64,000 bases of DNA from Bdellovibrionales bacterium (GCA_965262715.1 OZ253553.1:832001-896000), one strand, 5' to 3'. Positions 4,183-55,489 are shown, numbered from the stretch's first letter. Notes: generated by a model not told the origin, from the letters alone. Numbers and translations are program-made.

Positions 4183-4372
4183 TTTTGGCAGTCAGTATTT
4201 TGTTGACAGAGATACATCCCGTAGGGATACAGATCCCGTAGGGATACAGATCCCGTAGGGATATACATCCCGTAGTGTTATCGTCACGCTGACTGCCCAA
4301 AAACAAACAGATGCTCACCTCAAGAGGTTCGCCTCGAGAGGCTTGCCTCAAGAGGTTGGTTTATTTTGAGTG
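4183..4372 (+). repeat. Family-1 structured repeat, copy D, with about four 15-17-bp ATCCCGTAGGGAT mini-hairpin units and three CCTCRAGAGG hairpins
   Basis: ttttggcagtcagt...gctgactgcccaaaa inverted arms; homologous to 5989-6121 and 55345-55448. Confidence 0.75.
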
Positions 4373-4448
4373 AAAAGTTTGTGTGAAAATTCTAAATAGG
4401 TTAGGGTAGCATACGCTATAGTAGAAATTTTATGCAAAAGGAGGTTCT

Positions 4449-5756
4449 GTGCAAAAAAGAATATATATAGCAGATATCAAAAAAAACATGAACAAATACA
4501 AGGATCAACAGATAGAGCTTAAAGGATGGGTTTACTCTATAAGGTCTGCTGGAAAGCTTAGGTTTTTAATTTTTCGTGATGGAACAGGACTATGCCAATG
4601 TACCTTTATAAAATCAGAGATTGATTTAAAAACATGGGAAGATTGCTGTCAATTAGCCCAGGAGTCCACGGTCAAAGTTACAGGTTATCTTAGAGAGGAT
4701 CAAAGATCACCAGGCGGTTTTGAAATCACTGCAAAACATTTAGAGATTTTTTGTCATACAAAAGACTATCCTATTAGTCCAAAAGAGCATGGTGTGGATT
4801 TTTTAATGAATCACCGTCATTTATGGTTGAGGTCTAAACTTCAACATGCTGTTTTACGTATACGCAGTGAGATTGTTTCGGCTATTAGAGATTTCTTTAA
4901 TAGCAGAGATTTTACACTTATTGATGCCCCTATATTTACGGCAAATGCCTGCGAAGGGACATCTACACTTTTTCAGACTTCTTATTTTGATCAACAGGTC
5001 TATTTATCTCAAAGTGGTCAGCTTTATATGGAGGCAGCAGCAGCAGCATTTGGAAAAGTGTATTGCTTTGGACCTACATTTCGTGCAGAGAGGTCTAAGA
5101 CAAGAAGGCATTTGATAGAATTTTGGATGGTCGAACCAGAAGTCGCATTTAATGATCTTGTTGATAATATGGAGCTTGCAGAGCAGTTTGTAGAATATAT
5201 TATTCAAAGATGCCTCCAAAATAGAAAAGAAGAGCTGACAGTTTTAGAAAGGGATACATCACTATTACAAAAAGTCAAAGCTCCATTTCCAAGAGTTTTT
5301 TATAAGGAAGCAATTAAATTGATCAAATCACACAACCCTAATTTTCCTGAAGGTGATGATTTTGGAGCTCCAGAAGAAACCTTTTTAGGCAGTCAATTTG
5401 ATCGACCTGTCTTTGTGCACAATTACCCAGCTAATATCAAAGCATTTTATATGAAGCGTGATGAGAATAATCTAAATGAAAGTAAAAGTTGTGATTTAAT
5501 TGCTACAGAAGGTTATGGAGAAATTATTGGAGGAGGGCAGAGAGAAGATAATATTGATTTACTTCTAGAGCGTATAAGAGAACACAATCTCGAGCCAAAA
5601 GATTTTCAGTGGTATGTGGACTTAAGAAGTTATGGGGCTTTTCCATCATCAGGTTTTGGCTTAGGTGTTGAAAGATTTGTGTCTTGGGTATGTGGGCTTT
5701 CACATGTCAGGGAAACTATTGCCTTTCCAAGACTCTATGGCCGTATTTACCCTTAA
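4449..5756 (+). CDS. asnS: Asparagine--tRNA ligase
   Basis: OB-fold N-terminus, YLSQSGQLY, GPTFRAERSKTRRHLIEFWMVEPE, GFGLGVER. Confidence 0.96.
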   Translation: MQKRIYIADIKKNMNKYKDQQIELKGWVYSIRSAGKLRFLIFRDGTGLCQCTFIKSEIDLKTWEDCCQLAQESTVKVTGYLREDQRSPGGFEITAKHLEIFCHTKDYPISPKEHGVDFLMNHRHLWLRSKLQHAVLRIRSEIVSAIRDFFNSRDFTLIDAPIFTANACEGTSTLFQTSYFDQQVYLSQSGQLYMEAAAAAFGKVYCFGPTFRAERSKTRRHLIEFWMVEPEVAFNDLVDNMELAEQFVEYIIQRCLQNRKEELTVLERDTSLLQKVKAPFPRVFYKEAIKLIKSHNPNFPEGDDFGAPEETFLGSQFDRPVFVHNYPANIKAFYMKRDENNLNESKSCDLIATEGYGEIIGGGQREDNIDLLLERIREHNLEPKDFQWYVDLRSYGAFPSSGFGLGVERFVSWVCGLSHVRETIAFPRLYGRIYP

Positions 5757-5792
5757 AAGTGTCATGAAACGAAAAAATTTTTAAAGCTTTGA

Positions 5793-5879
5793 TTTGATAT
5801 TTTAAGCCAAACCTCGAAGTCAGCTGCTATAAAGCGGCGCACTCTGCAGAAGATCTCGTTTTTGGCTTAAAACATCAAA
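5793..5879 (+). repeat. Family-2 palindromic element (degenerate core)
   Basis: tttgatattttaagccaaa...tttggcttaaaacatcaaa arms; core ends ctctgcagaagatctcg. Confidence 0.7.
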
Positions 5880-5988
5880 CGTCAAGTTGCTATTATTATA
5901 AAGGTTTAGATGGATTTGAGAGAGAGAAAGAGAAAAATAAAGGGAAGTTTTCCTTAACATTTTATGAGAAAACGAGGAGTATCTATTC

Positions 5989-6121
5989 CACTCAAAATAA
6001 ACGGATTTTTGAGGCAATCAGCATTTTGTTGGGGAATACATCCCGTAGGGACATACATCCCGTAGTGTTAACCGTCACGCTGATTGCCCAAAAATGGTCA
6101 GAGGCCAGTTTATTTTTAGTG
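5989..6121 (+). repeat. Family-1 structured repeat, copy C
   Basis: P1 cactcaaaataaac/gtttatttttagtg; P2 tttttg(a)ggcaatcagc/gctgattgcccaaaaa; P3 tggtc-aga-ggcca. Confidence 0.8.
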
Positions 6122-6587
6122 AGACAGAAACGAGAGGCATTTTTAGTGAGACAGATGTGATTAGTTAGGGAAAGGTAGTGGGAATAGCTGAAAAGTTTCC
6201 CTAACATTTCGTTAGAGAGCAAGGAGTATCTTCTTAGTAAAAATGCCTCATACTTTCTAGGCAGTAAGCTATTTCCTGAAGACATGAGTCTTCAGGCTTA
6301 CTGCCAGAAAGTCGCCGGAGGCGAGAGGTATTTTTAGTGAGACAGAAACGAGAGGCATTTTTAGTGAGATAGATGTGATTGGTTAGGGAAAGGTAGTGGG
6401 AATAGCTGAAAAGTTTCCCTAACATTTCGTTAGAGAGCAAGGAGTATCTTCTTAGTAAAAATGCCTCATACTTTCTAGGCAGTAAGCTATTTCCTGAAGA
6501 CATGAGTCTTCAGGCTTACTGCCAGAAAGTCGCCGGAGGCGAGAGGTATTTTTAGTGAGACAGAAACGAGAGGCATTTTTAGTGAGA
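6111..6587 (+). repeat. 218-bp tandem repeat (~2.2 copies) carrying family-1 element copies A1 (6236-6339) and A2 (6454-6557)
   Basis: Units start at 6111, 6329 and 6547 and are near-identical. Confidence 0.92.
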
Positions 6588-6593
6588 AATCCC

Positions 6594-7448
6594 ATGGATG
6601 ATTTTGTTGTAAAAAGGTATCAAGGCATTTTAGTACAATTCTTAGGTAGTGACGGACAGTCTTTTTTACAAAGGCTGACTTCTATAGATATCACAAAGGT
6701 TAAAGAAGGTGATATGGTGCTTTCTACCTTTTTAGACGCTAAGGCCAGTGTTATAGCTGTTTTTTATGTGTTTAAAAAGGATTCTCATTTTAGTTTACTT
6801 GTATCTGAAACTTATAAAATTGATCTGACAGGGTACATTGAAAAAATGCATTTTTCAGAAGACCTCAAGTTAAATGTTGAGGATGTGAGTTGGTTAGAGA
6901 TGAGGTATGAAGAACTTCCATCTCAGCTGAGTGATATGAATGGATACACACTAAAAGACTGGAGTGTAAATCAAAAAATAATCAAGGGTCAGATTTTATT
7001 TCGTACCGAAATGACTCATCTTAAAAAGGACATAGTGACTTTTTTAGAAGAAAGTATCAATAAGCAACAATTTAATCTTTTAGAGTGTCATGCAATAAGT
7101 CCAGGCATAGATTCAAATTTATTTCGTTATATTATGATTTTAGATGGTCCTTTTGATCATCTTTTATCTAGGGATAAAGGTTGTTATCCTGGTCAAGAGG
7201 TGGTGGAGAAGATTTATAATATTGGTCGTCGTCCTAAAAAAATGAAATGTTGTCAAATAGATACATCATTTATGTCTATAAAAATGCCTGAAGGCCTTTT
7301 GCTTGAAAATAAAAAAGTGGGAAAGCTTTTGTGTGTCTTTCAATTAAGTGAACAAGCATGTCTAGGGCTAGCCATTTTACGCTATACATGCCATGCCTTA
7401 GAAATGCTGACAGAACTCAAAAAGTATCAGGTGCGTGTCATTTTATAA
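6594..7448 (+). CDS. ygfZ: Folate-binding Fe-S/tRNA-modification helper of the YgfZ/GcvT family
   Basis: KGCYPGQE signature; G.D...FLQRLTS. ATG 6594 preferred to the ORF-track GTG 6555, which lies inside the repeat. Confidence 0.85.
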   Translation: MDDFVVKRYQGILVQFLGSDGQSFLQRLTSIDITKVKEGDMVLSTFLDAKASVIAVFYVFKKDSHFSLLVSETYKIDLTGYIEKMHFSEDLKLNVEDVSWLEMRYEELPSQLSDMNGYTLKDWSVNQKIIKGQILFRTEMTHLKKDIVTFLEESINKQQFNLLECHAISPGIDSNLFRYIMILDGPFDHLLSRDKGCYPGQEVVEKIYNIGRRPKKMKCCQIDTSFMSIKMPEGLLLENKKVGKLLCVFQLSEQACLGLAILRYTCHALEMLTELKKYQVRVIL

Positions 7449-7603
7449 CTTTTATATATAATTAAATATATTATGGTCTGGTATTTCTTGTAGATGGAGT
7501 TGCATTATTTTATTTTTATAGGCGTATAATACTTGTATAAGCTAGAATGTCATGTAAAATGATAGTTATAAGACATTATAATAAATTCAACATAAAATAA
7601 ATT

Positions 7604-8449
7604 TTGGAGGTTATTTTGGGATTTATAAAATCAATATCTATCAAAAAATTTGTATGTGTATTTTCAACACTCTTTACAGGATTGACTTTAGGATCTTTTC
7701 TATTAGTTGGCTGTTCTACGGCACCAGATGTAGGTCAACTCAAGCAAATTTTTGAGGAAAACCCTGATATATTAGCTAATGCTATCAAGAAAAATCCAAA
7801 GCCTATTATGGATGCTCTCAACGACGCAGCTCAGGAAGCGCGTAGAGAACAGGTAGAGAATGCGCAAAAAGCACAGGATGAAGCTCGAGTTGATGCACGT
7901 AAAAACCCTAGAAAACCTCAAATTGACGATGATCGAGTCATTTTTGGTGAAAACAAGAAAGAGGCTAAAATCACTATTGTAGAATACTCTGATTTCCAAT
8001 GTGGTTACTGTGCACGAGCATATAACACAATGAAGCAAATCTTAGATAAGTATAAAGATAAAGTGCGTGTAATTTATAAGCATCTTCCTTTAGACTTCCA
8101 TCCAATGGCAGATCCAGCAGCTCGTTATTATGAAGCTATAGCTCTTCAAGACCATAAAAAGGCAGCACAGTTTCATGATAAAATCTTTGAAAATCAGGGC
8201 AGCCTAACTTCTGATGGTGAAAAGTTTCTAGAGAAAACAGCTAAAGAAGTTAAAGTCAATATGGCAAAACTCAAAAAGGATTTAGAATCTGATAAAGTCA
8301 AAAACCGTGTTCAAGCTGATAAGAAAGAAGCTACAAAATTTGGCTTCAACGGAACTCCAGGGTTTCTTGTTAATGGTGTCCCTCTTAACGGTGCTCAACC
8401 TATAGATGCTTTTGAAAAAGAGTTTAGAGATCAAGGGCTTTTGGATTAA
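7604..8449 (+). CDS. DsbA/thioredoxin-fold lipoprotein (Com1/DsbA family)
   Basis: LLVGC lipobox, EYSDFQCGYC, YKHLPL, GFNGTPGFLVNG. Confidence 0.9.
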   Translation: MEVILGFIKSISIKKFVCVFSTLFTGLTLGSFLLVGCSTAPDVGQLKQIFEENPDILANAIKKNPKPIMDALNDAAQEARREQVENAQKAQDEARVDARKNPRKPQIDDDRVIFGENKKEAKITIVEYSDFQCGYCARAYNTMKQILDKYKDKVRVIYKHLPLDFHPMADPAARYYEAIALQDHKKAAQFHDKIFENQGSLTSDGEKFLEKTAKEVKVNMAKLKKDLESDKVKNRVQADKKEATKFGFNGTPGFLVNGVPLNGAQPIDAFEKEFRDQGLLD

Positions 8450-8478
8450 TTATTGAGATTATACATAATTATGCTATA

Positions 8479-8519
8479 AAAATAAGCCAGGAGTTTTCAC
8501 TTCTGGCTTATTTTATTTT
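8479..8519 (+). terminator. Intrinsic (possibly bidirectional) terminator after the DsbA gene
   Basis: aaaataagccagga-loop-tctggcttatttt followed by a T-rich tract. Confidence 0.7.
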
Positions 8520-8535
8520 AAATGAGAGATATTCT

Positions 8536-9453
8536 ATGGATACCTTAAAAGAAAGAGTGAAAGAAAGTCCTCAAAAGCCAAACTGGTTAAAGGTGAGAGC
8601 ACCTGTTTCTCATAATTACTTTAAGCTTAAATCTATGTTTAAAAAGCTGAATTTAGCCACAGTTTGTCAGGAGGCAAGGTGTCCTAATATTGGAGAGTGT
8701 TGGCTTGGTGGAACAGCAACTATTATGTTAATGGGAGACGTTTGCACAAGAGGTTGTCGATTTTGCCATGTTAAAACGGGCAATCCTAGAGGTTTGATAG
8801 ATAAAAATGAGCCAGAAAAAGTGGGTTTTGCTGTCACTCAAATGGATTTGGACTATATAGTTTTGACGAGTGTAGATAGGGATGATTTACCTGATGGAGG
8901 TGCAGACCATTTTGCTCGAACAGTAGAAACCATTAAGCAATATCACAGAAAGCTTATTGTAGAAGTTCTTGTGCCAGACTTTAAGGCTTATCCAGATCAT
9001 ATTTTAAGAGTTGTTAATGCAAAACCTGATGTTTTTGCTCATAATATTGAAACAGTTGAGAGGCTTTCGCCTGCTGTGAGAGATGCAAGGGCGGGTTATG
9101 GCCAGTCACTCTTTGTATTAGAAAAAGTTAAAGATTTTGATAATTCCAGATACACAAAATCTTCTATTATGTTAGGTTTAGGAGAGACAAAAACAGAAAT
9201 TCGTCAGGCTTTAAGAGATTTAAGAAATGTAGGCTGTGATGTTGTGACCTTTGGTCAATATCTACAACCAACAAAAAGGCATTTAGATGTTAAAGAATAT
9301 GTAAGCCCAGATGAATTTAAAGAGTGGCAAATGTTTGCAGAAGGTATGGGATTTCTTTATGTTGCTAGCGGTCCACTCGTTAGAAGCTCCTACAAAGCTG
9401 GAGAATACTTTATGAAAGGAGTTATAGACAGACAAAAAGCAAATTTGTCTTAA
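8536..9453 (+). CDS. lipA: Lipoyl synthase
   Basis: CQEARCPNIGEC and CTRGCRFC clusters; VRSSY motif. Confidence 0.97.
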   Translation: MDTLKERVKESPQKPNWLKVRAPVSHNYFKLKSMFKKLNLATVCQEARCPNIGECWLGGTATIMLMGDVCTRGCRFCHVKTGNPRGLIDKNEPEKVGFAVTQMDLDYIVLTSVDRDDLPDGGADHFARTVETIKQYHRKLIVEVLVPDFKAYPDHILRVVNAKPDVFAHNIETVERLSPAVRDARAGYGQSLFVLEKVKDFDNSRYTKSSIMLGLGETKTEIRQALRDLRNVGCDVVTFGQYLQPTKRHLDVKEYVSPDEFKEWQMFAEGMGFLYVASGPLVRSSYKAGEYFMKGVIDRQKANLS

Positions 9454-9463
9454 TAATTAATTA

Positions 9464-9561
9464 TTTTGATATTTATAGCAAAGCCGAGTAGTCCTCGACA
9501 AGATTGCATTTCAGAAATCTTGTCTGCGGAAGAACTCGTCTTTTTGCTATAAATATCAAAA
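9464..9561 (+). repeat. Family-2 palindromic element
   Basis: ttttgatatttatagcaaa/tttgctataaatatcaaaa arms; core gtagtcctcga-[stem]-tctgcggaagaac. Confidence 0.8.
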
Positions 9562-9688
9562 TCTAATTTGCTAATACTCTTGACAAGGTGGTTATCCATA
9601 GGAGGATGAGACAGAAAAAGAGTGAAAGATAAAGAGAAGCAAATTCTTATATTTTGAGAAAACAAAAATGGAGAAGGAAGGAGTTAAG

Positions 9689-10912
9689 ATGTATGATATC
9701 AAGTTACCTGAGATTGGCGAAGGGGTTAATGAAGGTGAGCTATTAAAGTGGCTTGTCAAGGAAGGGGATGCTGTCAAGGTGGATCAGGGTCTTGTGGAGA
9801 TTTTAACAGATAAAGCATCTGTTGAAATTCCAAGTGCTGTGACGGGAACAGTGGAATCTCTTAAAGCTAATGTTGGAGATATGATTGAAGTAGGGCAGAC
9901 CTTAATGACTGTAAAGTTATCACAAGAATCTTCACAAAAAGTTGCCCAGCAAGTAACAAGCAATTATAAAGAAAGTTCTCAATCTGCTATTATTAAAGAT
10001 GCAAGAGCTGAAGATTCATCTGTAAAAAAGTTAAAAGACACCTCCGAGCAGGTATTGGCAACTCCTTCAACAAGGAGACTTGCTCAAAAATTAGATGTTG
10101 ATATCACTCAAGTTTCAGGTACAGGCAATATTGGCCGTGTGACACGAGAGGATGTAGAGAAAGCTTTCAAAACTGGTCATTCGCCGAGACAAGCTATTTC
10201 TGCAAAAGCAGATTTGAAGGACGAGGTGATTCCTTTAAGAGGTATTCGTAGAAAAATTGCAGAGAGGATGCAATTAGCTAAACAAACCATACCTCATTTT
10301 TCTATTATGGATGAGGCAAATGTCACTCAGTTGGTTCAATTAAGGGCAAAATGCAAAGAGCATTTTAAAGATGTTAAAATCACTTACCTACCTTTTATAA
10401 TGAAGGCACTTGTTTCTGCGTGTAAGGATTTTCCTATGTTAAATGCTTCTATAGATAAGGATCAAATTATCTATAGAAAGAATTTTCATATTGGCTTTGC
10501 AGCAGATACACCTGACGGACTTTTAGTTCCTGTGATTAAAAATGCAGATCAAAAAACCATTTTACAGATCAGTCAAGAAATAGAAGGCTTAGCCAATAAG
10601 GCGAAAGCAGGAAGACTCACATTAGAAGAGATGACAGGCAGTACTATCACTATTACAAATATTGGTAGTATTGGAGGCTCCTATGCTACACCTATTATCA
10701 ATCCACCTGAGGTAGCTATTATTGGCTTGTACCGCATAAAAAAAACACCAGTATTTAAAGATGGAGCTATTGAATCTGTTGATATGATGAATCTTTCATG
10801 TACAGCAGATCACAGATTGATTGATGGAGCGGTTGCTGCTAGGTTTTTGAAAACATTGATTCAGAAAATAGAAACCCCCGCTTTTTTAATAATAGATAAC
10901 TTAAGTATTTAA
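9689..10912 (+). CDS. 2-oxo-acid dehydrogenase E2 (dihydrolipoamide acyltransferase)
   Basis: Lipoyl domain (TDKA), E3-binding domain, catalytic DHRLIDGA. ATG 9689 has an AAGGAG RBS; alternative start 9668. Confidence 0.95.
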   Translation: MYDIKLPEIGEGVNEGELLKWLVKEGDAVKVDQGLVEILTDKASVEIPSAVTGTVESLKANVGDMIEVGQTLMTVKLSQESSQKVAQQVTSNYKESSQSAIIKDARAEDSSVKKLKDTSEQVLATPSTRRLAQKLDVDITQVSGTGNIGRVTREDVEKAFKTGHSPRQAISAKADLKDEVIPLRGIRRKIAERMQLAKQTIPHFSIMDEANVTQLVQLRAKCKEHFKDVKITYLPFIMKALVSACKDFPMLNASIDKDQIIYRKNFHIGFAADTPDGLLVPVIKNADQKTILQISQEIEGLANKAKAGRLTLEEMTGSTITITNIGSIGGSYATPIINPPEVAIIGLYRIKKTPVFKDGAIESVDMMNLSCTADHRLIDGAVAARFLKTLIQKIETPAFLIIDNLSI

Positions 10913-10964
10913 ATAATCTAAATCGTATTTCTCAGATTACTTCGATAAACTGAAAGGAGATATT

Positions 10965-12374
10965 TTGAAAGAGAAAACTTATGATGTTGTTGTTATCGGT
11001 GCGGGGCCTGGAGGCTATGTCTCTGCTATTCGATCATCACAATTAGGGTTGAAGACAGCTATTGTTGAAAAAAAGTATATGGGTGGAGTTTGTTTAAATG
11101 TAGGCTGTGTCCCTTCAAAAGCTCTTATAACTGCTTCTGAATTTTTTTATAAGTTAGCGCATGATGCTAAGGCTATGGGTATCTCAATCAATGGCTCTGC
11201 TTCTGTGGATATGAATAAACTGCAAAAGTGGAAAGAGTCTATTTGTAAAAAAATGTCATCTGGAATTTCTTCTCTGCTTAAAGGTAACAAAGTTGATATT
11301 GTTAATGGAGAAGCCTCATTTATTTCTCCAGAAAAGCTGGAAGTCAAATTACAAAATGATGATGTTCAATATATTCGCTCTAAATATTTTGTTTTGGCAA
11401 TGGGATCTTCTCCTATAGAGTTACCTCAATTTACTTTTGATGAAAAAAATATTTTATCTTCTACAGGGGGTCTTAACTTTCAGGAAGTTCCTAAAAGGAT
11501 TACTGTCATTGGTGGTGGTTATATTGGTTTAGAGATTGCAGGTTATTTGTGCCACTTAGGTTCCAAGGTAACTGTATTAGAAGCTAGTTCAGAGTTTTTA
11601 GGTGGACTAGCAGATAAAGATATAACTGAGGTGATAATAAAACATTTTAAAAAAATAGGTGTAACTCTTTTAACAAATTGCAAAGCACAATCTTGGAAGT
11701 CTAAAGGCGAAGATTTAATTGTAAATGTTGATATTCAAGGTCAAAAGCAGGATATATTAACTGATAAAATATTGATTGCAGTTGGAAGAAGGCCTAATTC
11801 TGATCAAGCAAATATAAAAGGAATTGGCTTAGAATTTGATAAAGGTTTTGTTAAAGTAGATAAGCAAAGGCGTACAAATATTCCTCATATTTTTGCTATC
11901 GGAGATATTGCAGGTCAACCTATGCTAGCGCATAAAGCAAGTTATGAGGGTATTTTAGTGGCTGAAGTCTTGGCAGGTAAAAAACGTATTTTTGATGCAA
12001 AGGTCATTCCATCTGTTGTTTTCACACATCCAGAATTTGCCTCTGTAGGCTTAAGTGAGAGAGAGTGTCAAGAGCAAGGATTATCAGTAAAGATAAGCCG
12101 GTTTCCATTTGCGGCAAATGCAAGAGCGTTTTGTTTTCAAGAGGTGAGCGGCTTTGTTAAGATGATTGCTGATTCTCGTAATGATTTGATTTTGGGAGTT
12201 CATATTGTAGGTCCTCAGGCAAGTCAATTAATCAGTGAGGCAGCACTTGCTATAGAGATGGGAGCGACATTAGAAGACATGGCATGTACTATTCATCCAC
12301 ATCCAACTCTTAGTGAAACTTTGATGGAGTCTTGTGAAGCGGCATTAGGGTATCCAATTCATATTTTACGTTAA
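10965..12374 (+). CDS. lpdA: Dihydrolipoamide dehydrogenase (E3)
   Basis: GAGPGGY, GGVCLNVGCVPSK, HPHPTLSE. Confidence 0.97.
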   Translation: MKEKTYDVVVIGAGPGGYVSAIRSSQLGLKTAIVEKKYMGGVCLNVGCVPSKALITASEFFYKLAHDAKAMGISINGSASVDMNKLQKWKESICKKMSSGISSLLKGNKVDIVNGEASFISPEKLEVKLQNDDVQYIRSKYFVLAMGSSPIELPQFTFDEKNILSSTGGLNFQEVPKRITVIGGGYIGLEIAGYLCHLGSKVTVLEASSEFLGGLADKDITEVIIKHFKKIGVTLLTNCKAQSWKSKGEDLIVNVDIQGQKQDILTDKILIAVGRRPNSDQANIKGIGLEFDKGFVKVDKQRRTNIPHIFAIGDIAGQPMLAHKASYEGILVAEVLAGKKRIFDAKVIPSVVFTHPEFASVGLSERECQEQGLSVKISRFPFAANARAFCFQEVSGFVKMIADSRNDLILGVHIVGPQASQLISEAALAIEMGATLEDMACTIHPHPTLSETLMESCEAALGYPIHILR

Positions 12375-12497
12375 TTTCTAGAATAGAATTTTTAATGGCT
12401 GTATTGTATAGAGAAAGATAGTTAAGTGTATAAAAATTTTATATTTTAGCTTATACGATAAATTATTCTTAGTATCTGTGTATGTAAGTATTATGAG

Positions 12498-13118
12498 TTG
12501 TGGTTTATGGGTAATGTTAGTTTGCAGTGTGTAGATTTAGGTTTGATTCCTTATAAGAAGGCTTTAGACTTTCAGTTGCAGTTGTTAGAAAAAGTGTATA
12601 AAAAAATAGCTGATGAAACATTGATTGTTTGTCGTCACCCTTTTGTATTAACTGTTGGGAGAAGTGCTAAGGAAAGTGATATTCAAAACTGGAATGGAGA
12701 AATTGTTAAGATACAAAGAGGTGGTGGAGTTACATTTCATGGACCAGGGCAGATTATCATTTATCCTATTTTAGATTTAAGGAAAAGAAATCAGGATTTG
12801 CATAGCTTTTTAAGAAAATTAGAAAAAAGTGTTATAGAAACATTAAAGTTTTATGATATTAAAGCATCTTGTAGAGATGGTGCAACGGGAGTTTGGGTAG
12901 GTGATAAAAAGATAACTTCTATTGGGATAGGAGTTAAAAAATGGATTTCCTACCATGGACTTGCCTTTAACTTTAAAAATGAATTCCTAAATCAAGGTAG
13001 CTTTAGTCCTTGTGGTTTTTCTCAAGATACTATGATAGGATTTACAGATATTGTAAGCGATGTTGACTTCGAAGAAGTTCAAAAAAAGCTTATTACACAA
13101 TTAAATAAGCTTTTTTAG
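12498..13118 (+). CDS. lipB: Octanoyltransferase
   Basis: RGGGVTFHGPGQ, KITSIG, HGLAFN, PCG. Confidence 0.95.
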   Translation: MWFMGNVSLQCVDLGLIPYKKALDFQLQLLEKVYKKIADETLIVCRHPFVLTVGRSAKESDIQNWNGEIVKIQRGGGVTFHGPGQIIIYPILDLRKRNQDLHSFLRKLEKSVIETLKFYDIKASCRDGATGVWVGDKKITSIGIGVKKWISYHGLAFNFKNEFLNQGSFSPCGFSQDTMIGFTDIVSDVDFEEVQKKLITQLNKLF

Positions 13119-13378
13119 AATTTCATCAGATAGTAAAATGACTAAAGGGTTTTCTTAGATTTCTTAGGTTTTTCTGGATAAAAGGACTCAACGTATCTAT
13201 TCTCGAGAGGTTTTTCATAATATGAATGAGTGTATTCATTGTAATGAGTATCATTACTTATAAAGTGACATCCATTCATCGCATAGAGTTGGTGTTATAG
13301 GCTCTTATTTAAAGTATATTAGATCATCAATAATAATAGTGCCAGTGTTTCCTTCTTCTACTACTTTCAATGGTTGTT

Positions 13379-13846
13379 TCAATGATTGTTGAAAAGGGTC
13401 CTTCTTATGTCTTCTATTCTTTCTATTATTCTTAGCTTGGCTTGTACTAAAGCTACTGTGACTCTATGAGTGTCGTCTCTATTCAAAGCTTCTGCAAGAG
13501 GTGTAATAGTTGTTTTTCTAAACCATCCCCTTTTAAACGATGGCATGCTAGGGTTTGCTCCAGCTTCCAATAAGGCTATAACAATTTCAAACCAATCATC
13601 GGAATCGTAGTTGTCATGAAAGGCATGTCTAACAGCTACAATTAATGGTGTATTGCCACCTTCATCTGTAATGTTGGGGTCTATATCTGCTTCTAATATT
13701 TCATCAATCCATGCTCGGTCTCCTAATGTTGATCTCATGTTATTTATTGTGGTTGTGGTCACTCCAAAACGTTGGGCAGCAGAAATTGTACCGGTCATTG
13801 ATATTAATGTAAAAATTGAAATAATTTTAAAATAAAAAGATGTCAT
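13379..13846 (-). CDS. Secreted ankyrin-repeat protein
   Basis: Signal peptide; GNTPLIVAV and LLEAGANP ankyrin motifs. Confidence 0.8.
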   Translation of the reverse strand: MTSFYFKIISIFTLISMTGTISAAQRFGVTTTTINNMRSTLGDRAWIDEILEADIDPNITDEGGNTPLIVAVRHAFHDNYDSDDWFEIVIALLEAGANPSMPSFKRGWFRKTTITPLAEALNRDDTHRVTVALVQAKLRIIERIEDIRRTLFNNH

Positions 13847-14126
13847 TATAATTTCTCCTTGTAATTTAAGATTTAGATTTTTAATTAAATATTATTGTTA
13901 AAATTTTTTATCAAAATTATTATAGGCGCTAGAGGTTTGAGTTAGATATTTATCTAAGTCTTGTCAATAATAAAAACCAACAAACCACTAACACCCTAAA
14001 TAATTCATATTAAAGAGAATTGATCCATTCAAGACATGAGCTTGATACATCTACATCTTCTTCTAAACTTTATATCTTAACAGTGCTGCATTCTTGCAAG
14101 CTTTTAGTTGTATTTTAAGCAAATTT

Positions 14127-14170
14127 TGTAAACTTTACAGCATGTTGCATCAAATAATGTAAACTTTACA
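14127..14170. promoter_or_regulatory. Two TGTAAACTTTACA palindromes 31 bp apart (candidate regulator sites)
   Basis: Exact copies at 14127-14139 and 14158-14170 in the divergent intergenic region. Confidence 0.5.
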
Positions 14171-14336
14171 ATGTTTCTTAGAAAGTAAAATTAGATTTGT
14201 AAAATATAAAATTTTAAGTTATAACCTCATTAACTTTAGTTTTAAGTTTTAGTTTAAATCTACCAATACAAACAAATGAAATGAAAATAATTTGTAAAAT
14301 AAAAATAAAAGTTTTTAATTTAGGAGGAAATAAATA

Positions 14337-15023
14337 ATGAAATTTATAAAATCAATAAGTTTAGCTGTGTTATTTACTATTTATGGAATAAGTGGAGCTT
14401 TTGCTCAAGATGATAATCCTGACTCACTTATTAAACCTAAACCTGTAGATCCCAGTGAGTTAAATCGTCTTTTGAAGCCTTTAGGAATGGAGCCTTATCC
14501 TTTTATTAAACAACCTGATCTAAGGATTATAAACTCTATGGAAAAAAACTATACTTATCCAACTTTGGAAAATGATTTTAAATATTTGACACATGAAATA
14601 GTAGAAGATGCCTATGTTCTTGTGTTTGGGAACTTTGGAGGAGAAGAGCAATTTTTTGATGGATATCTTCATGACAGAGATTTTCCAGAAGGAGTGCAAT
14701 ATAGCATGATTTGTGATCCTTTATTTTGGGAAGGAGATGAGGAGGATATAAACTATCTCAGTCGATCTGGTTTTTTAGATCAAGAGGCTAATTGTTCTGA
14801 ATTTGATGGTCGTAATGTATTTCCTTTAATTCATACAACTTCACAAGATGATAGAGTAGAACTTTTTGTTATTCCTCTTATAGATGGGCATTCACGAAGT
14901 AGAGTGATGGGAGCTGTTTCAGAAGTACAGGAATTACTAGATGCTGCAGAGAGTGGTGAATATATGACAGCTTTTGAAATAAGAAGCTTAATTGATGATC
15001 AATTAACTCGTTATGATAGATAG
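14337..15023 (+). CDS. Secreted hypothetical protein, paralog 1 of 3 (VEDAYxxVFGNFGG family)
   Basis: AGGAGG RBS; signal peptide ending GAFAQ; motifs shared with the next two ORFs. Confidence 0.85.
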   Translation: MKFIKSISLAVLFTIYGISGAFAQDDNPDSLIKPKPVDPSELNRLLKPLGMEPYPFIKQPDLRIINSMEKNYTYPTLENDFKYLTHEIVEDAYVLVFGNFGGEEQFFDGYLHDRDFPEGVQYSMICDPLFWEGDEEDINYLSRSGFLDQEANCSEFDGRNVFPLIHTTSQDDRVELFVIPLIDGHSRSRVMGAVSEVQELLDAAESGEYMTAFEIRSLIDDQLTRYDR

Positions 15024-15057
15024 AATTTTTAAAATTTTTTAAAGGAGAAAAAGAATT

Positions 15058-15753
15058 ATGAAATTTGTAAAATTAATGAGTTTAATTTTACTATTTATTA
15101 TTTGTGGAACAAGTGGAGTTTTTGCACAAAATACTTCTAAACCTATGCAAAGAGAGTTGATTGGATTACTGAATCTTGAATATCCAAACAACAACTCTCA
15201 AAGCCTACTTAATATCTATGAAGAAGTGAGGAGATGGACTGTCAATCTTAAACTTGAAGAGGCACGTGAAGCTTACGAAGAATCTAGAAGTAATGTTCTA
15301 GATAATACTCATACAGTGGAAGATGCTTATCTCTTAGTGTTTGGAAATTTTGGAGGAGAAGAGCCATTTTTTGATCAATATTTTGACCGATATCCTCATG
15401 ATACAAATATTTTAGTTCCTGAGGGAATACAGACTGATTTTGTTTGTTATGAGACATTTTGGTCAACTCTTAATGTAACCTATTTTCCTCGTCGTACGGA
15501 TTATGATTCAACTTGTAATCCAAATGAAAATCATAATCTTCTTTCCTTGTTTCATTCAGTATTAAGAGATACGGAAGTCTTTGTGATCCCTTTCCGTGGA
15601 AGGTTTTCATTGGATATCTTAAGATTAGCTGTTTCAATGGTGCAAGCTGATATGAGACATAGTGATGAATATCAGACAGCTCTACAAATAAAAAGTTCAA
15701 TCCTTGATTATTATGTGGCAATTATGAGAACAGAAGGTCAAGAGGAATTATAA
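15058..15753 (+). CDS. Secreted hypothetical protein, paralog 2 of 3
   Basis: AAGGAG RBS; signal peptide; VEDAYLLVFGNFGGEE. Confidence 0.85.
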   Translation: MKFVKLMSLILLFIICGTSGVFAQNTSKPMQRELIGLLNLEYPNNNSQSLLNIYEEVRRWTVNLKLEEAREAYEESRSNVLDNTHTVEDAYLLVFGNFGGEEPFFDQYFDRYPHDTNILVPEGIQTDFVCYETFWSTLNVTYFPRRTDYDSTCNPNENHNLLSLFHSVLRDTEVFVIPFRGRFSLDILRLAVSMVQADMRHSDEYQTALQIKSSILDYYVAIMRTEGQEEL

Positions 15754-15872
15754 ATTTATTTGTGCCATACTTAATTTGGCAGTTGTATTATAATATAGGA
15801 AAAGGCAGTTAATTGATGACCAATTAACTGATAGATAGAATTTTTAAAATTTTTTAAAGGAGAAAAAAAATT

Positions 15873-16577: not shown

Positions 16578-16748
16578 TAATTTCTTTCAGTATGGGCATT
16601 CATCATGTTGTGGAAGATCGTCGGTAATGTTAAACCATAAACATTTATCTTTAACAAAAATATGCTTTTCTGGTTGAATACCAATTTCATTATCAAATAG
16701 GCCTGCACTCATAAATATTCTATCAGGCTTTTTATGATAAAAGTAAAT
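16503..16748. repeat. 246-bp direct repeat (left target duplication of IS1634 element 1); partner at 18695-18940
   Basis: Sequence matches on both sides and abuts the IS ends exactly. Confidence 0.93.
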
Positions 16749-18694: not shown

Positions 18695-18940
18695 AGTGAT
18701 GAATATATGACACCTCGTGAAATAAAGACTTTAATTAAGAAATCAATAAAGTTAACTATTGAGAGATAGTAATTTCTTTCAGTATGGGCATTCATCATGT
18801 TGTGGAAGATCGTCGGTAATGTTAAACCATAAACATTTATCTTTAACAAAAATATGCTTTTCTGGTTGAATACCAATTTCATTATCAAATAGGCCTGCAC
18901 TCATAAATATTCTATCAGGCTTTTTATGATAAAAGTAAAT
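18695..18940. repeat. 246-bp direct repeat (right target duplication of IS1634 element 1)
   Basis: Matches 16503-16748. Confidence 0.93.
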
Positions 18941-19189: not shown

Positions 19190-19346
19190 TCCCTCCTATT
19201 ATCAATAGTGATGAACTTTAGTTAGAAGTCATCTCAAAATTATTTCCTGTGCTCATGTTTTTAAAACAATAATTGCCTATTCTTTACAAAAGGTTTTTAT
19301 CAATACTATCTATCAAATAGGTAAAATTTTTATTACAGAGTTAATT

Positions 19347-41084: not shown

Positions 41085-44000
41085 ATGAAAAAAATAATGA
41101 AATTCTTTAGGGTTATAAAAAAACGAAACATAAAAAAGCATTTTTTGTTAAGTTTTAATAATGCCTTTTATCTACTTCTATTGGCTTCACTTTTCTTGTT
41201 ATTAGCTTTTCAAAACTGCGGTTCAAATGTAAGTCAAGCTCCTAACCTGTTTTCTGAACAAACGGTATCTAATGATAAAGGTTATATTATTGCTTATTTA
41301 CCATCAGAAGATGAAAGCATCTCGATAGAAGATTATTTCCTAATTGATAGTGATGTGAAACTAAAGGTTATGAATAGTCATTCTGATTCTGAAGATTTTA
41401 AATGGAAAATCACTAGAGCCTTTGAAACTATTACTGATGGAGAAGAGACAACAACTGAACCAGAATACCAACATAAATTCGAACAATATGGAAGTTACGA
41501 TATTTTTGCTACATCTTATAAAAGCTCTGATTTGTTAACCGTGGCCAGTAAAAGACTTGTGATTGGTGAGGAATGCTCATTAACAGATGTCTTAGAGATA
41601 TTTCTTGAAAGCGGTTCTTTGACTGTTGGACAGACTGCCACTTTTGAATTAAAGAATGCTATAGATTTTTCGAACATCTTATGGAAGGTCACATTACCTT
41701 CTTCAACTGAGGAGACAAACGAAGATGATAGTGAAAGTATTGAATTAGACTTTACCAATGAATCTGCTGGTTCTGTTACTATTGAGGTGTCTGCAGAAGA
41801 TCCTGACAATTCTGATTGCCTCACCTATCGAAAACAAGTTTTGCAAGTGAGCTCTAATTCTAAACCTCATTTTAATCCAATAATTATTAAACATAATGAT
41901 GAAGAAATTGCTGTGATGTTAGAAAGTAATAACATTTATAAGTATTTAAGACCTGAAGGTGGAACTTGGACATTACATACAAATATTCAAAATGCTAATC
42001 AATGTGAACTTCAAATTGATAGTGGCAGTGAGGATGTACTAAATTGCAGTGATGGTGTAATAGACATCACTTCAACTGAAGTCTGTGTAAAAAGTACTAT
42101 AGCAATACAAGCTTCAACCTCTTCTTCTACCACTATAGATAGTCAAACTTCGGCAGATGATATAGTTGAACAGTTTTATTATAATTACTGTCCATCAGAT
42201 GGCAGCTATTGTTATTTTTCCGGACCTTTACCTGGTCCATTAAGTTATCAGACCTGTGACAATTCTATATTAGGCCAAGCTGTTACACGCAATCCATCTT
42301 CAATCGTAAATGGAGAATGTAATAACTCCGTCAAAAATGGTTGTATTCAAGGTACTTTAAATGACATAGATGATTCAGAAACTCATTATCAGTGGCAGTG
42401 TTTAGGTACCAACGATGGCACTGATGCTACAGGTTGCTGCAGTATGGCCATTGATACAGCAGCACCAATAAATGGTGTTTGCGGCGATGACACCATCAGA
42501 AATGGTTGTACTGCTGGGACTCCAGACGACGGCGCAATAGCTGATACAAGTACTCATTATACATGGCATTGTGTTGGCTCAAATGGTGGTGCAACAGCAA
42601 GTTGTACAAAAGCTATACCTCCTGTCAACGGCGTTTGTAATAACAGTCAACAAAATGGTTGTTCTTCGGGCACAGCAAATGATGCAGCTATAGCCGATAC
42701 AAACACTCATTATACATGGCACTGTGAAGGTTCAAATGGAGGCAGCACTGCTACAAATTGTCAAAAAGCAAAATCTGCACCAGTAAACGGCGTTTGTAAT
42801 AACAGTCAACAAAATGGTTGTTCTTCGGGCACAGCAAATGATGCAGCTATAGCCGATACAAACACTCATTATACATGGCACTGTGAAGGTTCAAATGGAG
42901 GCAGCACTGCTACAAATTGTCAAAAAGCAAAATCTGCACCAGTAAACGGTGTTTGTAATAATAATCAAAGAAATAGCTGTTCTTCGGGCACTGCAAACGA
43001 TGGCGCAATAGCCGATACAAATACACATTATACATGGCACTGCGTAGGTGCAAATGGAGGCACTACTGCTACAAATTGTCAAAAAGAGAAACCTGTTAAC
43101 GGTGCTTGTAATAATGCTCAAAGAAATGGCTGTTCTTCGGGCACTGCAAACGATGGCGCAATAGCTGATACAAATACACATTATACATGGCATTGTGTAG
43201 GTGCAAATGGCGGCACTACTGCTACAAACTGTCAAAAGGCAAAACCTGTTAAAGGTATTTGTAATAACAGTCAACAAAATGGTTGTTCTTCCGGCACAGC
43301 AAATGACTCAGCTATAACCGATACAAATACTCATTATACATGGCACTGTGTGGGTAAAAATGGAGGCAGTACTGCTACAAATTGTCAAAAGGCGAAACCT
43401 GCATCAGTAAACGGTGTTTGTAATAACAGTCAGCGAAATGGCTGCTCTGCTGGCAGAGCAAACGACGCCGTAATAGTCGATACAAATACACATTATACAT
43501 GGCACTGTGAAGGTTCAAATGGCGGCACTACAGCACAAAGTTGTCAAAAACTAATGCCTATCCATGGCGTTTGTGATAACAGTAAACAAAATAGCTGCTC
43601 TTCCGGCACTCCAAACGACGGCGTTATTGCAGATACAAATACACATTATACATGGTACTGCATAGGTGCAAATGGCGGCACTACTGCTATAGATTGTCAA
43701 AAGCTGATACCTATCGATGCCGTTTGTGATCAAAGCCAAAGAAATGGTTGCTCTGCTGGGACTGCAAAGGCATTGCCAGATAATACACATTCCACCCTTT
43801 ATCTATGGACTTGTGAAGGTTTGCATGGAGGTGGAAATCAAAGTTGTACTAGATTAAAAAGTATCATCGAAGGAGTTTGTGATAACAGCCAACGAAATGG
43901 CTGCAGCTCTGGGACTCCAGACGATGGCGCAATAAATGATACAGATACACATTATACATGGCTCTGTATGGGTGCAAATGGCGGCGCTACTGCTACAAAT

Positions 44001-44171
44001 TGTCAGATACAGAAAACACCTATCAATGGTTCTTGTAATCTGGGGCAAAGGAATGGTTGCTATTCGGGCACTCCAAAGGCACAGCCAGATGATGAGATAA
44101 ATAACTCTTATGTATGGCTTTGTGAAGGTTCAAATGGCGGCAAAACAGCAAGATGTTTCAAACGAAGATAA
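41085..44171 (+). CDS. Large surface lipoprotein: Ig/PKD-like N-terminal half plus 12 four-Cys repeats of ~51-53 aa
   Basis: LAFQNCG lipobox; repeat consensus PVNGVCNNSQxNGCSSGTANDxAIADTNTHYTWHCxGxNGGxTATNCQK. Confidence 0.88.
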   Translation: MKKIMKFFRVIKKRNIKKHFLLSFNNAFYLLLLASLFLLLAFQNCGSNVSQAPNLFSEQTVSNDKGYIIAYLPSEDESISIEDYFLIDSDVKLKVMNSHSDSEDFKWKITRAFETITDGEETTTEPEYQHKFEQYGSYDIFATSYKSSDLLTVASKRLVIGEECSLTDVLEIFLESGSLTVGQTATFELKNAIDFSNILWKVTLPSSTEETNEDDSESIELDFTNESAGSVTIEVSAEDPDNSDCLTYRKQVLQVSSNSKPHFNPIIIKHNDEEIAVMLESNNIYKYLRPEGGTWTLHTNIQNANQCELQIDSGSEDVLNCSDGVIDITSTEVCVKSTIAIQASTSSSTTIDSQTSADDIVEQFYYNYCPSDGSYCYFSGPLPGPLSYQTCDNSILGQAVTRNPSSIVNGECNNSVKNGCIQGTLNDIDDSETHYQWQCLGTNDGTDATGCCSMAIDTAAPINGVCGDDTIRNGCTAGTPDDGAIADTSTHYTWHCVGSNGGATASCTKAIPPVNGVCNNSQQNGCSSGTANDAAIADTNTHYTWHCEGSNGGSTATNCQKAKSAPVNGVCNNSQQNGCSSGTANDAAIADTNTHYTWHCEGSNGGSTATNCQKAKSAPVNGVCNNNQRNSCSSGTANDGAIADTNTHYTWHCVGANGGTTATNCQKEKPVNGACNNAQRNGCSSGTANDGAIADTNTHYTWHCVGANGGTTATNCQKAKPVKGICNNSQQNGCSSGTANDSAITDTNTHYTWHCVGKNGGSTATNCQKAKPASVNGVCNNSQRNGCSAGRANDAVIVDTNTHYTWHCEGSNGGTTAQSCQKLMPIHGVCDNSKQNSCSSGTPNDGVIADTNTHYTWYCIGANGGTTAIDCQKLIPIDAVCDQSQRNGCSAGTAKALPDNTHSTLYLWTCEGLHGGGNQSCTRLKSIIEGVCDNSQRNGCSSGTPDDGAINDTDTHYTWLCMGANGGATATNCQIQKTPINGSCNLGQRNGCYSGTPKAQPDDEINNSYVWLCEGSNGGKTARCFKRR

Positions 44172-53358: not shown

Positions 53359-53592
53359 TATGAACCTCCTTTAAAATTCTCAGGTAGCTTTTCCATATAT
53401 CATTTTTCACCTATGATCAATAAATAATCTCTTAAATTTCTTTTTTAAAAAACTATGGCGATTGCCCAAAATTCTATAAAGAACTGAAATTATTATGCAA
53501 AGCACCTATAATATGGTGAAGTTTTTATAAATCAAAAAGATATTTTTTTTTCTAAATTAGGTAGAAATAATTGCCATAAAAAATCAAGGGTA

Positions 53593-54093
53593 CTAGAGAT
53601 GAGAAAAATAAGGGTGCAGTGTATTATAGACGTGTTCTAAGCTCATAGAGATCACCTTCGTTTCTGCGATTAGAGGTAGGAAATTTGTATCTCCAGACCA
53701 CCTAGGTATAATGTGGTAGTGAAGATGCTCCGGCAATCCTGCTCCAGCATGACTTCCTAAGTTGATCCCAATATTTAGAGCTTCTGGATTAAATGCTTTT
53801 TGCAAAATATCTAAGGTTATTTTGATAGTTTCTTGTACCTTGATGTACTCTTCTTGAGGAAGTTTTAGAAGATTAGATTCATGTGTGCGTGGCAAAATCA
53901 ATAAATGACCACTATTATAAGGATACTTATTCACAAAGACTAAGCTAAAATCATCGTGGTAAAGGATTAAAGATTCAAAACACACTCCTTGTTTAAGCGC
54001 ATGGCAAAAAGTACATGGAGCAGGTGTTTTTTTTCTCGCTTTTGTAATATACTTGATGCGATCTGGGCGGAACCAAAGATTTAACCTCGACAT
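53593..54093 (-). CDS. HIT-family hydrolase
   Basis: CTFC, NKYPYNSGHLLILP, AGAGLPEHLHYHIIPRWSGD. Confidence 0.93.
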   Translation of the reverse strand: MSRLNLWFRPDRIKYITKARKKTPAPCTFCHALKQGVCFESLILYHDDFSLVFVNKYPYNSGHLLILPRTHESNLLKLPQEEYIKVQETIKITLDILQKAFNPEALNIGINLGSHAGAGLPEHLHYHIIPRWSGDTNFLPLIAETKVISMSLEHVYNTLHPYFSHL

Positions 54094-54134
54094 TTGTAAG
54101 TTCCTTTTTTACACACATTAAGTAAGTTATCAGG

Positions 54135-55067
54135 TCAATGAGATGGCATTAAATACATAGGAGTTTGGGGATAAAATAAGAAAGAAAAAAAGTGGCTTCC
54201 AGGATAAAAACTTTCTATGTCTTCAAACCATCTAAAAAATGAAGACCTATCTTTAGGATTAAAAATTTTTAAAGATGCTTCACCAGTTAGTTCTTCTGCA
54301 AGTTCAATAGCATCTGAGAAATTACCCACTTTATCAGCAAAGCCTAACTCTACAGCTTTTTCACCGGTAAAAATACGGCCATCTGCATTTCGGTCAACCA
54401 AGCCTGGATCAAGATTGCGTCCTTTTACAATATCATCTTTAAATTGTTTTAAAACTTCATCCAAAACACCTCGTAAATAAGTTTCTTCTTCTGTGGACAT
54501 ACTTCTATAATCTGCACCCACATCTTTATACTTACCTGTTTTAATTGCATATCTTCTAATTTTAGCCCACTTGTAAAGATTTTCTAAATTAGCAAAGTTT
54601 ATAATGACTCCAATAGATCCCACAAGGGTACCTGCTTGAGTGACAATTTGATCTGCTCCTGCAGAAATATAATAAGCTCCGCTTGTAGCTATAGCTTCAA
54701 GAGACATAATAACAGGTTTTTTAAACTCCTCGCGTATTTTAATTAATTCTCTATAGATAGCTTGACTTGGGCCTACAGCACCTCCAGGTGAATTGACCCT
54801 TATCACAACAGCCTTTACACTATCTTTATCAATATAATCTCTTAAGGTTTTGAGAAATTTACTGGATCTCATAATGACTCCTTCAAGGTCTAAAACTAAA
54901 ACTGATGAGTCATTTGACAATGTTTTTGTACTTCTATTTGAAACTAATGATTGTAAAGCTCCATAAGATAAGAAAACACCTATTGCAATACTTAAGAATG
55001 TAAATAGGAAAGATAATTTCCAAAAGTTTTTAAAAAAAGATGAAAAACACTTAGACCATGATGCCAT
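54135..55067 (-). CDS. sppA: Signal peptide peptidase SppA (short form)
   Basis: RVNSPGG, ATSGAYYIS, GSIGVI, KTGKYKD, DGRIFTG. Confidence 0.93.
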   Translation of the reverse strand: MASWSKCFSSFFKNFWKLSFLFTFLSIAIGVFLSYGALQSLVSNRSTKTLSNDSSVLVLDLEGVIMRSSKFLKTLRDYIDKDSVKAVVIRVNSPGGAVGPSQAIYRELIKIREEFKKPVIMSLEAIATSGAYYISAGADQIVTQAGTLVGSIGVIINFANLENLYKWAKIRRYAIKTGKYKDVGADYRSMSTEEETYLRGVLDEVLKQFKDDIVKGRNLDPGLVDRNADGRIFTGEKAVELGFADKVGNFSDAIELAEELTGEASLKIFNPKDRSSFFRWFEDIESFYPGSHFFSFLFYPQTPMYLMPSH

Positions 55068-55344
55068 AAATCTCTCCCTTGATTTTATCTCTTAAAATAT
55101 CCTAAGATAGTTTTTTAAATATATTTACTATAAAAGTCTCAGATATGCTATAAGTCAACCTAAAAAACCTACTTTGTTGAACGACTTTTAGGGGCTGGCT
55201 ACCTTTCAAGTTTTTTATTTTAAAAGGTTTTAGGGCATGAAAATTAAGTATTTTGACATAGTTTATACAAATAAGCACTAATTTATCAGCTTCCTTGATG
55301 AGTTGAATATGACCAATAGTTTCTAATATCGCTTGAACCTGTTT

Positions 55345-55489
55345 CACTTAAATAAATCAGCCTCTCAAGGCAAACCTCTCGAGGCAAGTCTCTGACGACT
55401 AATGTCTTCAGCAAATAGATGATTCTAGAAAGTCTGCTTATTTTGAGTAAGGAAGTATTTCTCATTTTTTATATCATGCTAAGAAAACT
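55345..55489 (-). repeat. Family-1 structured repeat, copy E (degenerate), upstream of sppA
   Basis: Reverse complement: actcaaaataagcagactttctag...ctgaagacattagtc...gcctcgagaggtttgccttgagaggctgatttatttaagtg. Confidence 0.65.

Follow-up and report, generated by a model that had tools for sequence, protein, structure and literature searches.

The 64,000-nucleotide (nt) stretch of Bdellovibrionales bacterium DNA considered here (the window; G000:C1:832001-896000, where G000 is the source genome, a single contig of 2.94 Mb and 33.6% GC) contains several copies of a dispersed repeat that is predicted to fold into a three-way junction, and whose two ends differ strikingly in the junctions that they make with neighboring DNA. 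The explanation that we favor, with a probability of roughly 0.5, is that this element is a selfish, non-coding, polar repeat, and that free DNA 3′ ends anneal to its tail and copy it from its 3′ end to its 5′ end and past it. An initial annotation of the window had proposed an undescribed mobile structured element, and this proposal has held up: there are hundreds of copies, lineage-specific sites, filled and empty versions of paralogous sites, and extensive covariation, and there is no match in Rfam at the gathering threshold (the best score was 27 bits, against thresholds of 60–100, to microRNA models). The main comparison is with G001, a congener in the same genus (median protein identity 66%; 2.4 of its 2.57 Mb were read, and the assembly is rated 90% complete); of three further comparison genomes, G002, G003, and G004, the first two do not carry the element.

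An alignment of 170 copies defines a repeat unit of ~148 nt that runs from TTTCCYTAACAT to TTTKAGKGARACAG and is composed of a leader, the three-way junction (stems P1, P2, and P3), and a 3′ tail. The leader had been described as a stretch that precedes most copies; it is real, but it is not separate, being part of the ~148-nt unit. All of the window copies that had been listed are present in the sequence, and their modular apical part, which is either a simple hairpin or an array of mini-hairpins, is real as well. The intact copies in the window have folding z-scores of −5.6 to −10.6 relative to shuffled sequences, and the copy near sppA has a z-score of only −1.6. The covariation noted for P1, P2 (with its bulged A), and P3 is clear in a set of 47 diverse copies (42 from G000, three from G001, and two from G004), in which 89.8% of the alignment cells pair and 343 have two-sided changes, compared with 120 in shuffles (none of 500 reached 343) and 30–44 when the helices were slid, although these controls remove the relatedness among copies only in part. 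The leader is conserved in sequence, and its two possible hairpins, which show almost no covariation, were dropped as real helices. The P3 triloop, given initially as RGA, is AGA in 148 of 158 copies. A preference of G-T wobble pairs for one strand is found in G000 (173 G-T versus 86 A-C in 158 copies) but is weak in G001 (71 versus 60 in 142 copies); one G-T pair at the foot of P1 is present in all 142 of the G001 copies. The sense strand is the better folder in 71 of 100 copies with RNA parameters and in 80 of 100 with DNA parameters, and the modeled fold is probably strand-specific. Both sets of parameters favor the sense strand, and the folded form may be either RNA or single-stranded DNA.

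The element is abundant in both carriers. Its profile has 470 hits in G000 (427 above 30 bits and 305 full length, 59 kb in total) and 1,073 hits in G001 (133 kb of the 2.4 Mb read, with 590 exact leader motifs), or ~2% of the former and 5.5% of the part read of the latter. After removal of open reading frames (ORFs) overlapped 15% or more by the element, none of the 427 G000 copies and none of the 1,073 G001 copies lies inside a long ORF; dispensable genes are nonetheless interrupted by it. The element model found no match in 140 other genomes of the class, blastn matched the element in two of 40 relatives, and it was not found in two other genomes of the same family. Viral contigs, JGI metagenomes, phages, and plasmids, each searched narrowly with one pattern or query, gave no match, and four pattern hits outside the Bdellovibrionales were dropped (~10 bits or less, over the tail only). 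Three G004 contigs (C1, C4, and C11) carry all nine of that genome's element motifs; C11 has a second rplN gene and the only IS1634 insertion sequence (IS) of that genome, and C4 its only match to the Rpn nucleases. The three are probably contamination from a relative of the source genus, as suggested by the second rplN on one of them, and the G004 matches were therefore left out of the distribution. By these searches, the element appears confined to one genus of Bdellovibrionales. No published description of the repeat family was found in the literature searched, which was covered at the level of abstracts with most subscription journals outside it.

Among 262 syntenic gaps between orthologs, nine have a copy only in G000, seven only in G001, and none in both; thus, the element has moved separately in each lineage. 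The median identity of a copy to its nearest unrelated neighbor is 94% in G001 (134 sampled copies) versus 87% in G000 (228 copies), and by this measure the dispersed G001 copies are the younger. The observation that the element always lies in the sense orientation upstream of a gene is true for the window only, where the four cases are a small-sample effect. Counted over the whole genome, the downstream gene is co-oriented with the element in 125 cases and opposed to it in 104 in G000 (246 and 198, respectively, in G001), which is near random in both genomes, and the two replication strands are used alike (leading versus lagging, 119:110 in G000). The suggestion that the element might be a cis-regulatory leader fares poorly in the face of this orientation and the lack of a single syntenic gap with a copy in both genomes.

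The polarity of the element is most directly seen where filled and empty paralogous sites can be compared (27 loci in G000, which by our reading are about a dozen events, and 17 in G001; many pairs descend from one event). At the 5′ side there are 0–55 extra bases not found in the target. The 3′ junction is fully or almost flush, and several of these junctions span 2–8 shared bases. For example, the 3′ microhomology is 2 nt at G000 positions 1403438 and 923394, 3 nt at G001 1200776, and 7–8 nt at G000 2507590 and G001 756667, and a clean insertion at G001 1827549 has none. The target itself has undergone changes that extend from duplication of 25 bp at one extreme to loss of 30 bp at the other. 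Most of the 5′ extras in G001 are pieces, of varying length, of a small number of common upstream sequences, so they were probably carried over from the donor. The 20 nt upstream of copies are A-rich, and the downstream flank is at background immediately. No short fixed target duplication exceeds chance in 168 contexts; of 12 listed loci with longer flanking repeats, 10 begin within 6 nt of the 3′ end. In one insertion family a later deletion is flush with the 3′ end (175971 versus 1248722). Snap-back copies at the 5′ junction (eight of 160 flanks versus 1.4 in shuffled sequences) are a genuine but small class, and may be what is left of head-to-head pairs.

The same polarity is found where the element abuts genes. 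Its 3′ end overlaps or lies within 10 nt of a convergent stop codon in 24 of 102 cases in G000, whereas the 5′ end does so with upstream stops in six of 117 (p = 1e-4); the corresponding values in G001 are 65 of 220 and two of 216 (p = 2e-19). In 13 cases with an ortholog the 3′ end reaches the stop codon, and most of these copies supply the stop and the last protein residues. The 3′ end also abuts the CCA ends of five of 38 tRNA calls in G000 (at 0–4 nt) and of four of 32 in G001 (at 4–9 nt; three of the four are different tRNAs), as well as tRNA 5′ starts such as that of the tRNA-Ser gene in the window. Priming of reverse transcription by tRNAs, which the CCA fusions might suggest, does not account for a 3′ end that is also found against tRNA 5′ starts and stop codons, and was dropped. 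Site-specific integration at a core common to both ends was likewise rejected (the upstream bases and the 3′ end have no per-locus match), as was an IS608-like guide, for which covariation between the upstream bases and the leader is weak and has no coherent pattern (best z 5.0 and 4.8 in 288 tests, uncorrected for relatedness). As a separate observation, a copy behind tRNA-Pro (G000:C1:937316-937800) has a 30-bp duplication of that tRNA's 3′ end on its flanks, and a near-identical copy 11 kb away (948250) carries 11 bp from the left flank and 23 bp from the right; the pair looks like a circular permutation of one repeat unit.

Extra 3′ tails of 13–30 nt follow many copies, and the tail comes from another variant at 36 of 47 junctions in G000 and 29 of 31 in G001. 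Most non-coding arrays also contain the element (28 of 30 in G000, 37 of 45 in G001). Array boundaries that start in unique DNA lie at the 3′ end of the element in 12 of 22 cases in G000 (chance 0.048 each), a sample to which some arrays contribute both of their ends and one family contributes twice. The array junctions are often over 1–8 nt of microhomology.

Template switching by DNA 3′ ends would produce junctions of this kind. The sense strand, as modeled, would fold into the three-way junction with a short unpaired 3′ tail, and this folded single strand, either a transcript or an exposed DNA strand, would serve as the template, and an opposite-strand 3′ end would join the tail, or prime extension on it, across one to a few bases. 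Priming from a distant site would create a new copy, ragged on its 5′ side, that takes along a variable length of the upstream flank of its donor, a primer from upstream in cis would give a tandem duplication, and one from downstream in cis would give an adjacent deletion. Selection would stop such deletions at stop codons, ribosome-binding sites, and tRNA edges, and a deletion running into the next copy would leave a foreign tail. The covariation could be maintained because well-folding copies would be copied more often. The variable microhomology, the ragged last bases, and the loss of target bases argue for primed copying on a folded template more than for precise nicking.

Parts of this scheme have two published precedents. 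Group II intron reverse transcriptases (RTs) switch templates via short 3′-end pairing and can join microhomologies (10.1101/2022.03.14.484287), and the Rpn nucleases leave 3′-OH ends and promote RecA-independent recombination, for which the authors favor polymerase template switching (PMC5350276). Genes for Rpn are numerous in the two carriers (19 matches in G000 and 16 in G001), and RecA is present. Rpn was not retained as a cognate enzyme: 41 of 45 Rpn-like ORFs in G001 are near copies (a set that included low-complexity false members and broken genes), but only 10 of 43 are in G000, and the layout is not fixed. G000 has a group II intron with one intact RT ORF and five intron RNA matches, and what we take to be a retron-like RT. 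The introns lie at 1928383–1929872 (the intact ORF), 1880079, 1433978, 1775502, and 1199100, and three of the latter four have ORF remnants. Within the probability given above, the larger share goes to a host DNA polymerase working at DNA breaks or stalled replication forks, which as a specific proposal is tentative, and the smaller share to a group II intron-type RT that comes and goes, which is doubtful. It is possible, if somewhat improbable, that the element is a selfish repeat with no need for a transposase, recombinase, or RT of its own, whose 150-nt fold is a single-stranded landing pad that catches free 3′ ends by microhomology, the copying being done by polymerases of host repair or replication; if so, it would be a polar hot spot for local deletion and amplification.

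A number of points weigh against template switching. We know of no precedent for host-only spread on such a scale, and no enzyme is tied to the element. In G001, which has the younger copies, there is neither an RVT_1 match nor group II intron RNA, nor anything that matches the intron RT of G000, and Rpn is also abundant in G003, a genome without the element. Only two of 10 unique-start array boundaries are at the 3′ end in G001 (p = 0.07), and the repeated counting among the 22 boundaries of G000 has to be borne in mind. The empty sites are paralogs of 74–100% identity, and some of the "extra" bases and "deletions" may be later divergence. The abutment of genes could in part be due to selection against insertions, together with longer 5′ carry-over, without later deletion. 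Finally, the dinucleotide AG is found at the junctions of four G000 arrays and two dispersed events, which fits a CT cut on the other strand.

Such a cut would fit the main rival explanation, in which the element is non-autonomous single-stranded DNA and an HUH tyrosine nuclease of a RAYT-, IS200/IS605-, or IS91-like type moves it by cutting at its 3′ end. The cut end would be transferred to sites with little selectivity, the variable 5′ carry-over and the arrays would result from leaky termination, and the enzyme would be lost, transient, or too divergent to be recognized. This explanation keeps its rank because it would give the same polarity and because AG at the six junctions fits a CT cut, and it also accommodates the strand-specific fold, the conserved bulge, the two functionally different ends, and the lack of a fixed duplication. 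IS91 has distinct ori and ter ends, makes no target duplication, and takes neighboring DNA along through one-ended transposition (PMC13181058), TnpA-REP makes its cuts at CT to either side of a hairpin and any 3′-OH can resolve the intermediate (PMC8266576), and REPINs also form tandem clusters that include flanks (PMC3116915). However, there is no conserved target tetranucleotide next to the 3′ end in tables of flank bases, conservation at the 3′ end fades over the last three bases, and most G001 copies end in CAA rather than CAG; moreover, microhomology at the junctions is anywhere between 0 and 8 nt, and the target undergoes loss or duplication of bases. The linked HUH, RAYT, or RT gene that might have been expected was not found tied to the element. 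RAYT (NF047646) has no match in G000 or G001, G001 has no Y1 transposase, and the one Y1 gene of G000, of IS200 type, is bounded by hairpin ends of its own, with no copy of the element next to it. Searches for Y2/IS91 enzymes found none in five genomes, and also none in 14 controls. Neither a motif screen of the shared proteins (from proteomes that are only partly annotated) nor the genes that have a copy on the corresponding side in G000 and G001 (26 of 1,102 pairs, judged from sequence starts) produced an HUH-type candidate, and no autonomous version was found by eye among the truncated copies listed or among genes flanked on both sides. IS110 and Ku have no match in G000 or G001. Movement by an HUH enzyme is considered a credible but rather improbable alternative.

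Other candidate movers were also rejected. A Xer/dif-like site was considered, but the tyrosine recombinases present resemble a standard Xer and a short catalytic-domain form, and the element-free G002 has tyrosine recombinases too, one of them similarly short; a stand-alone tyrosine recombinase of this catalytic-domain size (185–198 aa) is encoded in the window (60897–61454), with similar short forms in G001 and G002 and none in G003 or G004. The four-helix-bundle genes (PF05635; 19 in G000, 14 in G001, and 19 in G004) are targets and carriers of the element instead of movers, and nearly all of the 19 G004 matches are on contigs without copies. These genes are dispersed, have short tandem repeats on their flanks, and show no transposase next to them, and one G000 lineage of them was interrupted by the element and spread afterwards.

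It is unlikely that the element is a host-maintained regulatory or structural signal (a promoter, protein-binding leader, attenuator, or RNA stabilizer) spread by recombination and gene conversion. The conservation of the first 20 nt in sequence with almost no covariation, including an imperfect palindrome, would suit such a role, as would the terminator-like site that P3 and the T-run following it make on the sense strand (three found versus 0.5 in shuffles). Some copies lie directly before essential tRNAs and ribosome-binding sites, and co-directional gaps in G000 have a slight sense bias (74:50, p = 0.04). On the other hand, a maintained signal is difficult to reconcile with near-random orientation, with the absence of copies common to both genomes in the 262 syntenic gaps, and with the lack of any common function seen among neighboring genes. 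Nor does it sit well with insertions into other repeats, a four-helix-bundle gene, and CRISPR repeats, or with the failure to find the element in the two other genomes of the family or the rest of the class sample, and no sigma-70 promoter match was found inside the copies. With regard to CRISPR, a locus at G000:C1:476700-490700 (28-nt repeat, cas-like genes at 483–490 kb) has an array that ends in an element copy flanked by duplicated repeat, and two more isolated repeat pairs each enclose a copy.

The least probable explanation, a miniature inverted-repeat transposable element (MITE) that a resident DDE transposase would move in trans, with IS1634 and its long variable duplications as the most plausible source of the enzyme, is largely refuted: the ends of the element do form a weak inverted repeat of ~11 nt, IS1634 tracks its distribution (41 matches in G000, 10 in G001, one on an element-bearing G004 contig, and none in G002 or G003), 22 of 32 IS1634 copies have duplications of 38–337 bp, and flanking repeats of 11–79 nt are present at 13 of 187 G000 element loci (about one expected), but the other 174 loci have none, G001 has only a small excess (33 of 399 versus 13–20 by chance), no short fixed duplication is present, none of the IS1634, IS30, IS5-like, and IS256-like ends among those listed matches the element, and its strong end asymmetry and internal covariation are unexpected for a MITE. 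Two IS1634 copies in the window (16503–18940 and 37042–40695) have flanking direct repeats of 246 and 189 nt, respectively.

The element combines features of several known systems. The initial comparison with REP sequences and MITEs is apt as a resemblance, but no RAYT, GTAG foot, fixed duplication, or matching IS end among those listed goes with it. Like the REP, BIME, and REPIN families that accompany RAYT (TnpA-REP), it occurs as hundreds of extragenic strand-specific folds, in mosaics and in tandem clusters that include flanks, with no fixed target duplication (PMC3116915; PMC8266576). Unlike them, it is a three-way junction and not an inverted REP doublet, its ends are polar, and a RAYT was found in neither carrier; in 217 contexts there is no GTAG/GGAG hairpin foot, the start of the motif on the opposite strand being split about evenly and none lying at the sense 5′ foot. 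It shares with IS91/ISCR one fixed end, one leaky end that carries adjacent DNA, and the lack of a target duplication (PMC13181058), but has no transposase inside or found nearby, no target tetranucleotide, variable junction microhomology, and target bases that are lost or duplicated. Chimeric tails, short microhomology, and a fixed 3′ end with 5′ truncations and extras are reminiscent of template switching by group II intron-type RTs and of G2L4-type end joining (10.1101/2022.03.14.484287); the element differs in that no RT or intron RNA was found in G001 and in having no poly(A)-like tail. A fixed 3′ end, a variable 5′ end, and chimeric junctions are also features of retroposition of the kind that spreads short interspersed nuclear elements (SINEs). 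The CGTC-tagged repeats, which include the Rickettsia palindromic elements, are likewise abundant palindromic repeats without a dedicated transposase (PMC3733652), but no CGTC tag was seen at either end of the present element, which is larger, multi-branched, and extensively covarying, and is not tolerated inside intact long ORFs. Bacterial MITEs are similar in size, copy number, intergenic location, and strong predicted RNA fold (in part from PMC3733652) and differ in the ways described above. Families of this kind include ERIC, Correia, and RUP. The element is thus a blend of the REPIN type (abundance, fold, and clusters) and of one-ended or retroposed types (polarity), and it lacks a defining feature of each.

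The means by which small enzyme-less bacterial repeats spread is a question posed by several families; those of the CGTC type, for example, lack a dedicated transposase (PMC3733652). The present element offers hundreds of natural junctions with readable polarity in two genomes, which makes this question directly testable. It has also reshaped its hosts, through its presence in most of their non-coding arrays, the rewriting of protein C-termini, and the replacement of tRNA flanks. Should a lost RAYT or RT prove to be the explanation, the element would be a further family of REPIN or SINE type, found in an uncultured genus, and only moderately interesting; it is the polar junction pattern, together with the lack of any known mobilizer found in the genome with the youngest copies, that makes it stand out.

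The window copies show much of this variety. The first (4183–4376, + strand) is 5′-truncated, starting at P2, and has four mini-hairpin repeats at its apex, a tripled P3, and a position 72 nt before the asnS start codon. A full copy at 5949–6127 (+) has the leader, P1, P2 with a mini-hairpin apex, P3, and the 3′ tail, and is followed by an extra 3′ tail (6128–6154, +) of another variant, with nine mismatches to the end of the preceding copy (at genome position 837949) and two to another copy. A full copy of a second subfamily (6196–6345, +) with a tail following it is duplicated, tail included, at 6414–6588 (+), ending 7 nt before an ATG in the frame of a ygfZ-like gene; this 218-bp tandem duplication (6111–6587, +; 2.2 copies, 99%) is bounded by tails of older copies. 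The 431-bp array (26218–29235) has 7.0 identical units, each with two copies of the element. One is a full copy (26257–26401, −) whose 3′ end abuts the 5′ start of tRNA-Ser(GCT) (26165–26255, −) and which recurs every 431 nt up to 28843–28987; the other (26473–26648, +; 27.5 bits), also repeated every 431 nt, is divergent, with the same P1 and tail and a different long P2. The new junction of the array joins the 3′ end of the + strand divergent copy to a site inside tRNA-Ser, the first 38 nt of which are duplicated in the array, and the last divergent copy overlaps the 3′ end of trmD. Both tandem amplifications recognized initially are thus real in the assembly, with copy numbers as assembled; the divergent copy in every 431-bp unit and the extra 3′ tails had been missed. 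The last copy (55339–55487, −), ~270 nt from the start of sppA, is degenerate with P2 partly deleted, and carries flanks of an insertion into a four-helix-bundle gene that is found elsewhere in G000. No usable empty allele was present among contigs aligned to window positions 1–20000.

Two other repeat families in the window are associated with the element. A second hairpin repeat (5760–5895 and 9450–9560), often fused upstream or downstream of it, resembles a hairpin inside the 3′ end of the resident IS30, and a third, MITE-like repeat with inverted ends (19215–19290 and 59480–59575) both hosts and carries the element elsewhere in G000. Three related genes lie in tandem at 19347–23268, the first of which has weak matches of ankyrin type, and 41085–44171 encodes a protein of 1,028 aa that contains about ten cysteine-containing repeats of 153 bp and is without a match in NCBIfam. 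Outside the window, three or four degenerate tRNA-like repeats stand in tandem before tRNA-Trp (G000:C1:2198524-2198955).

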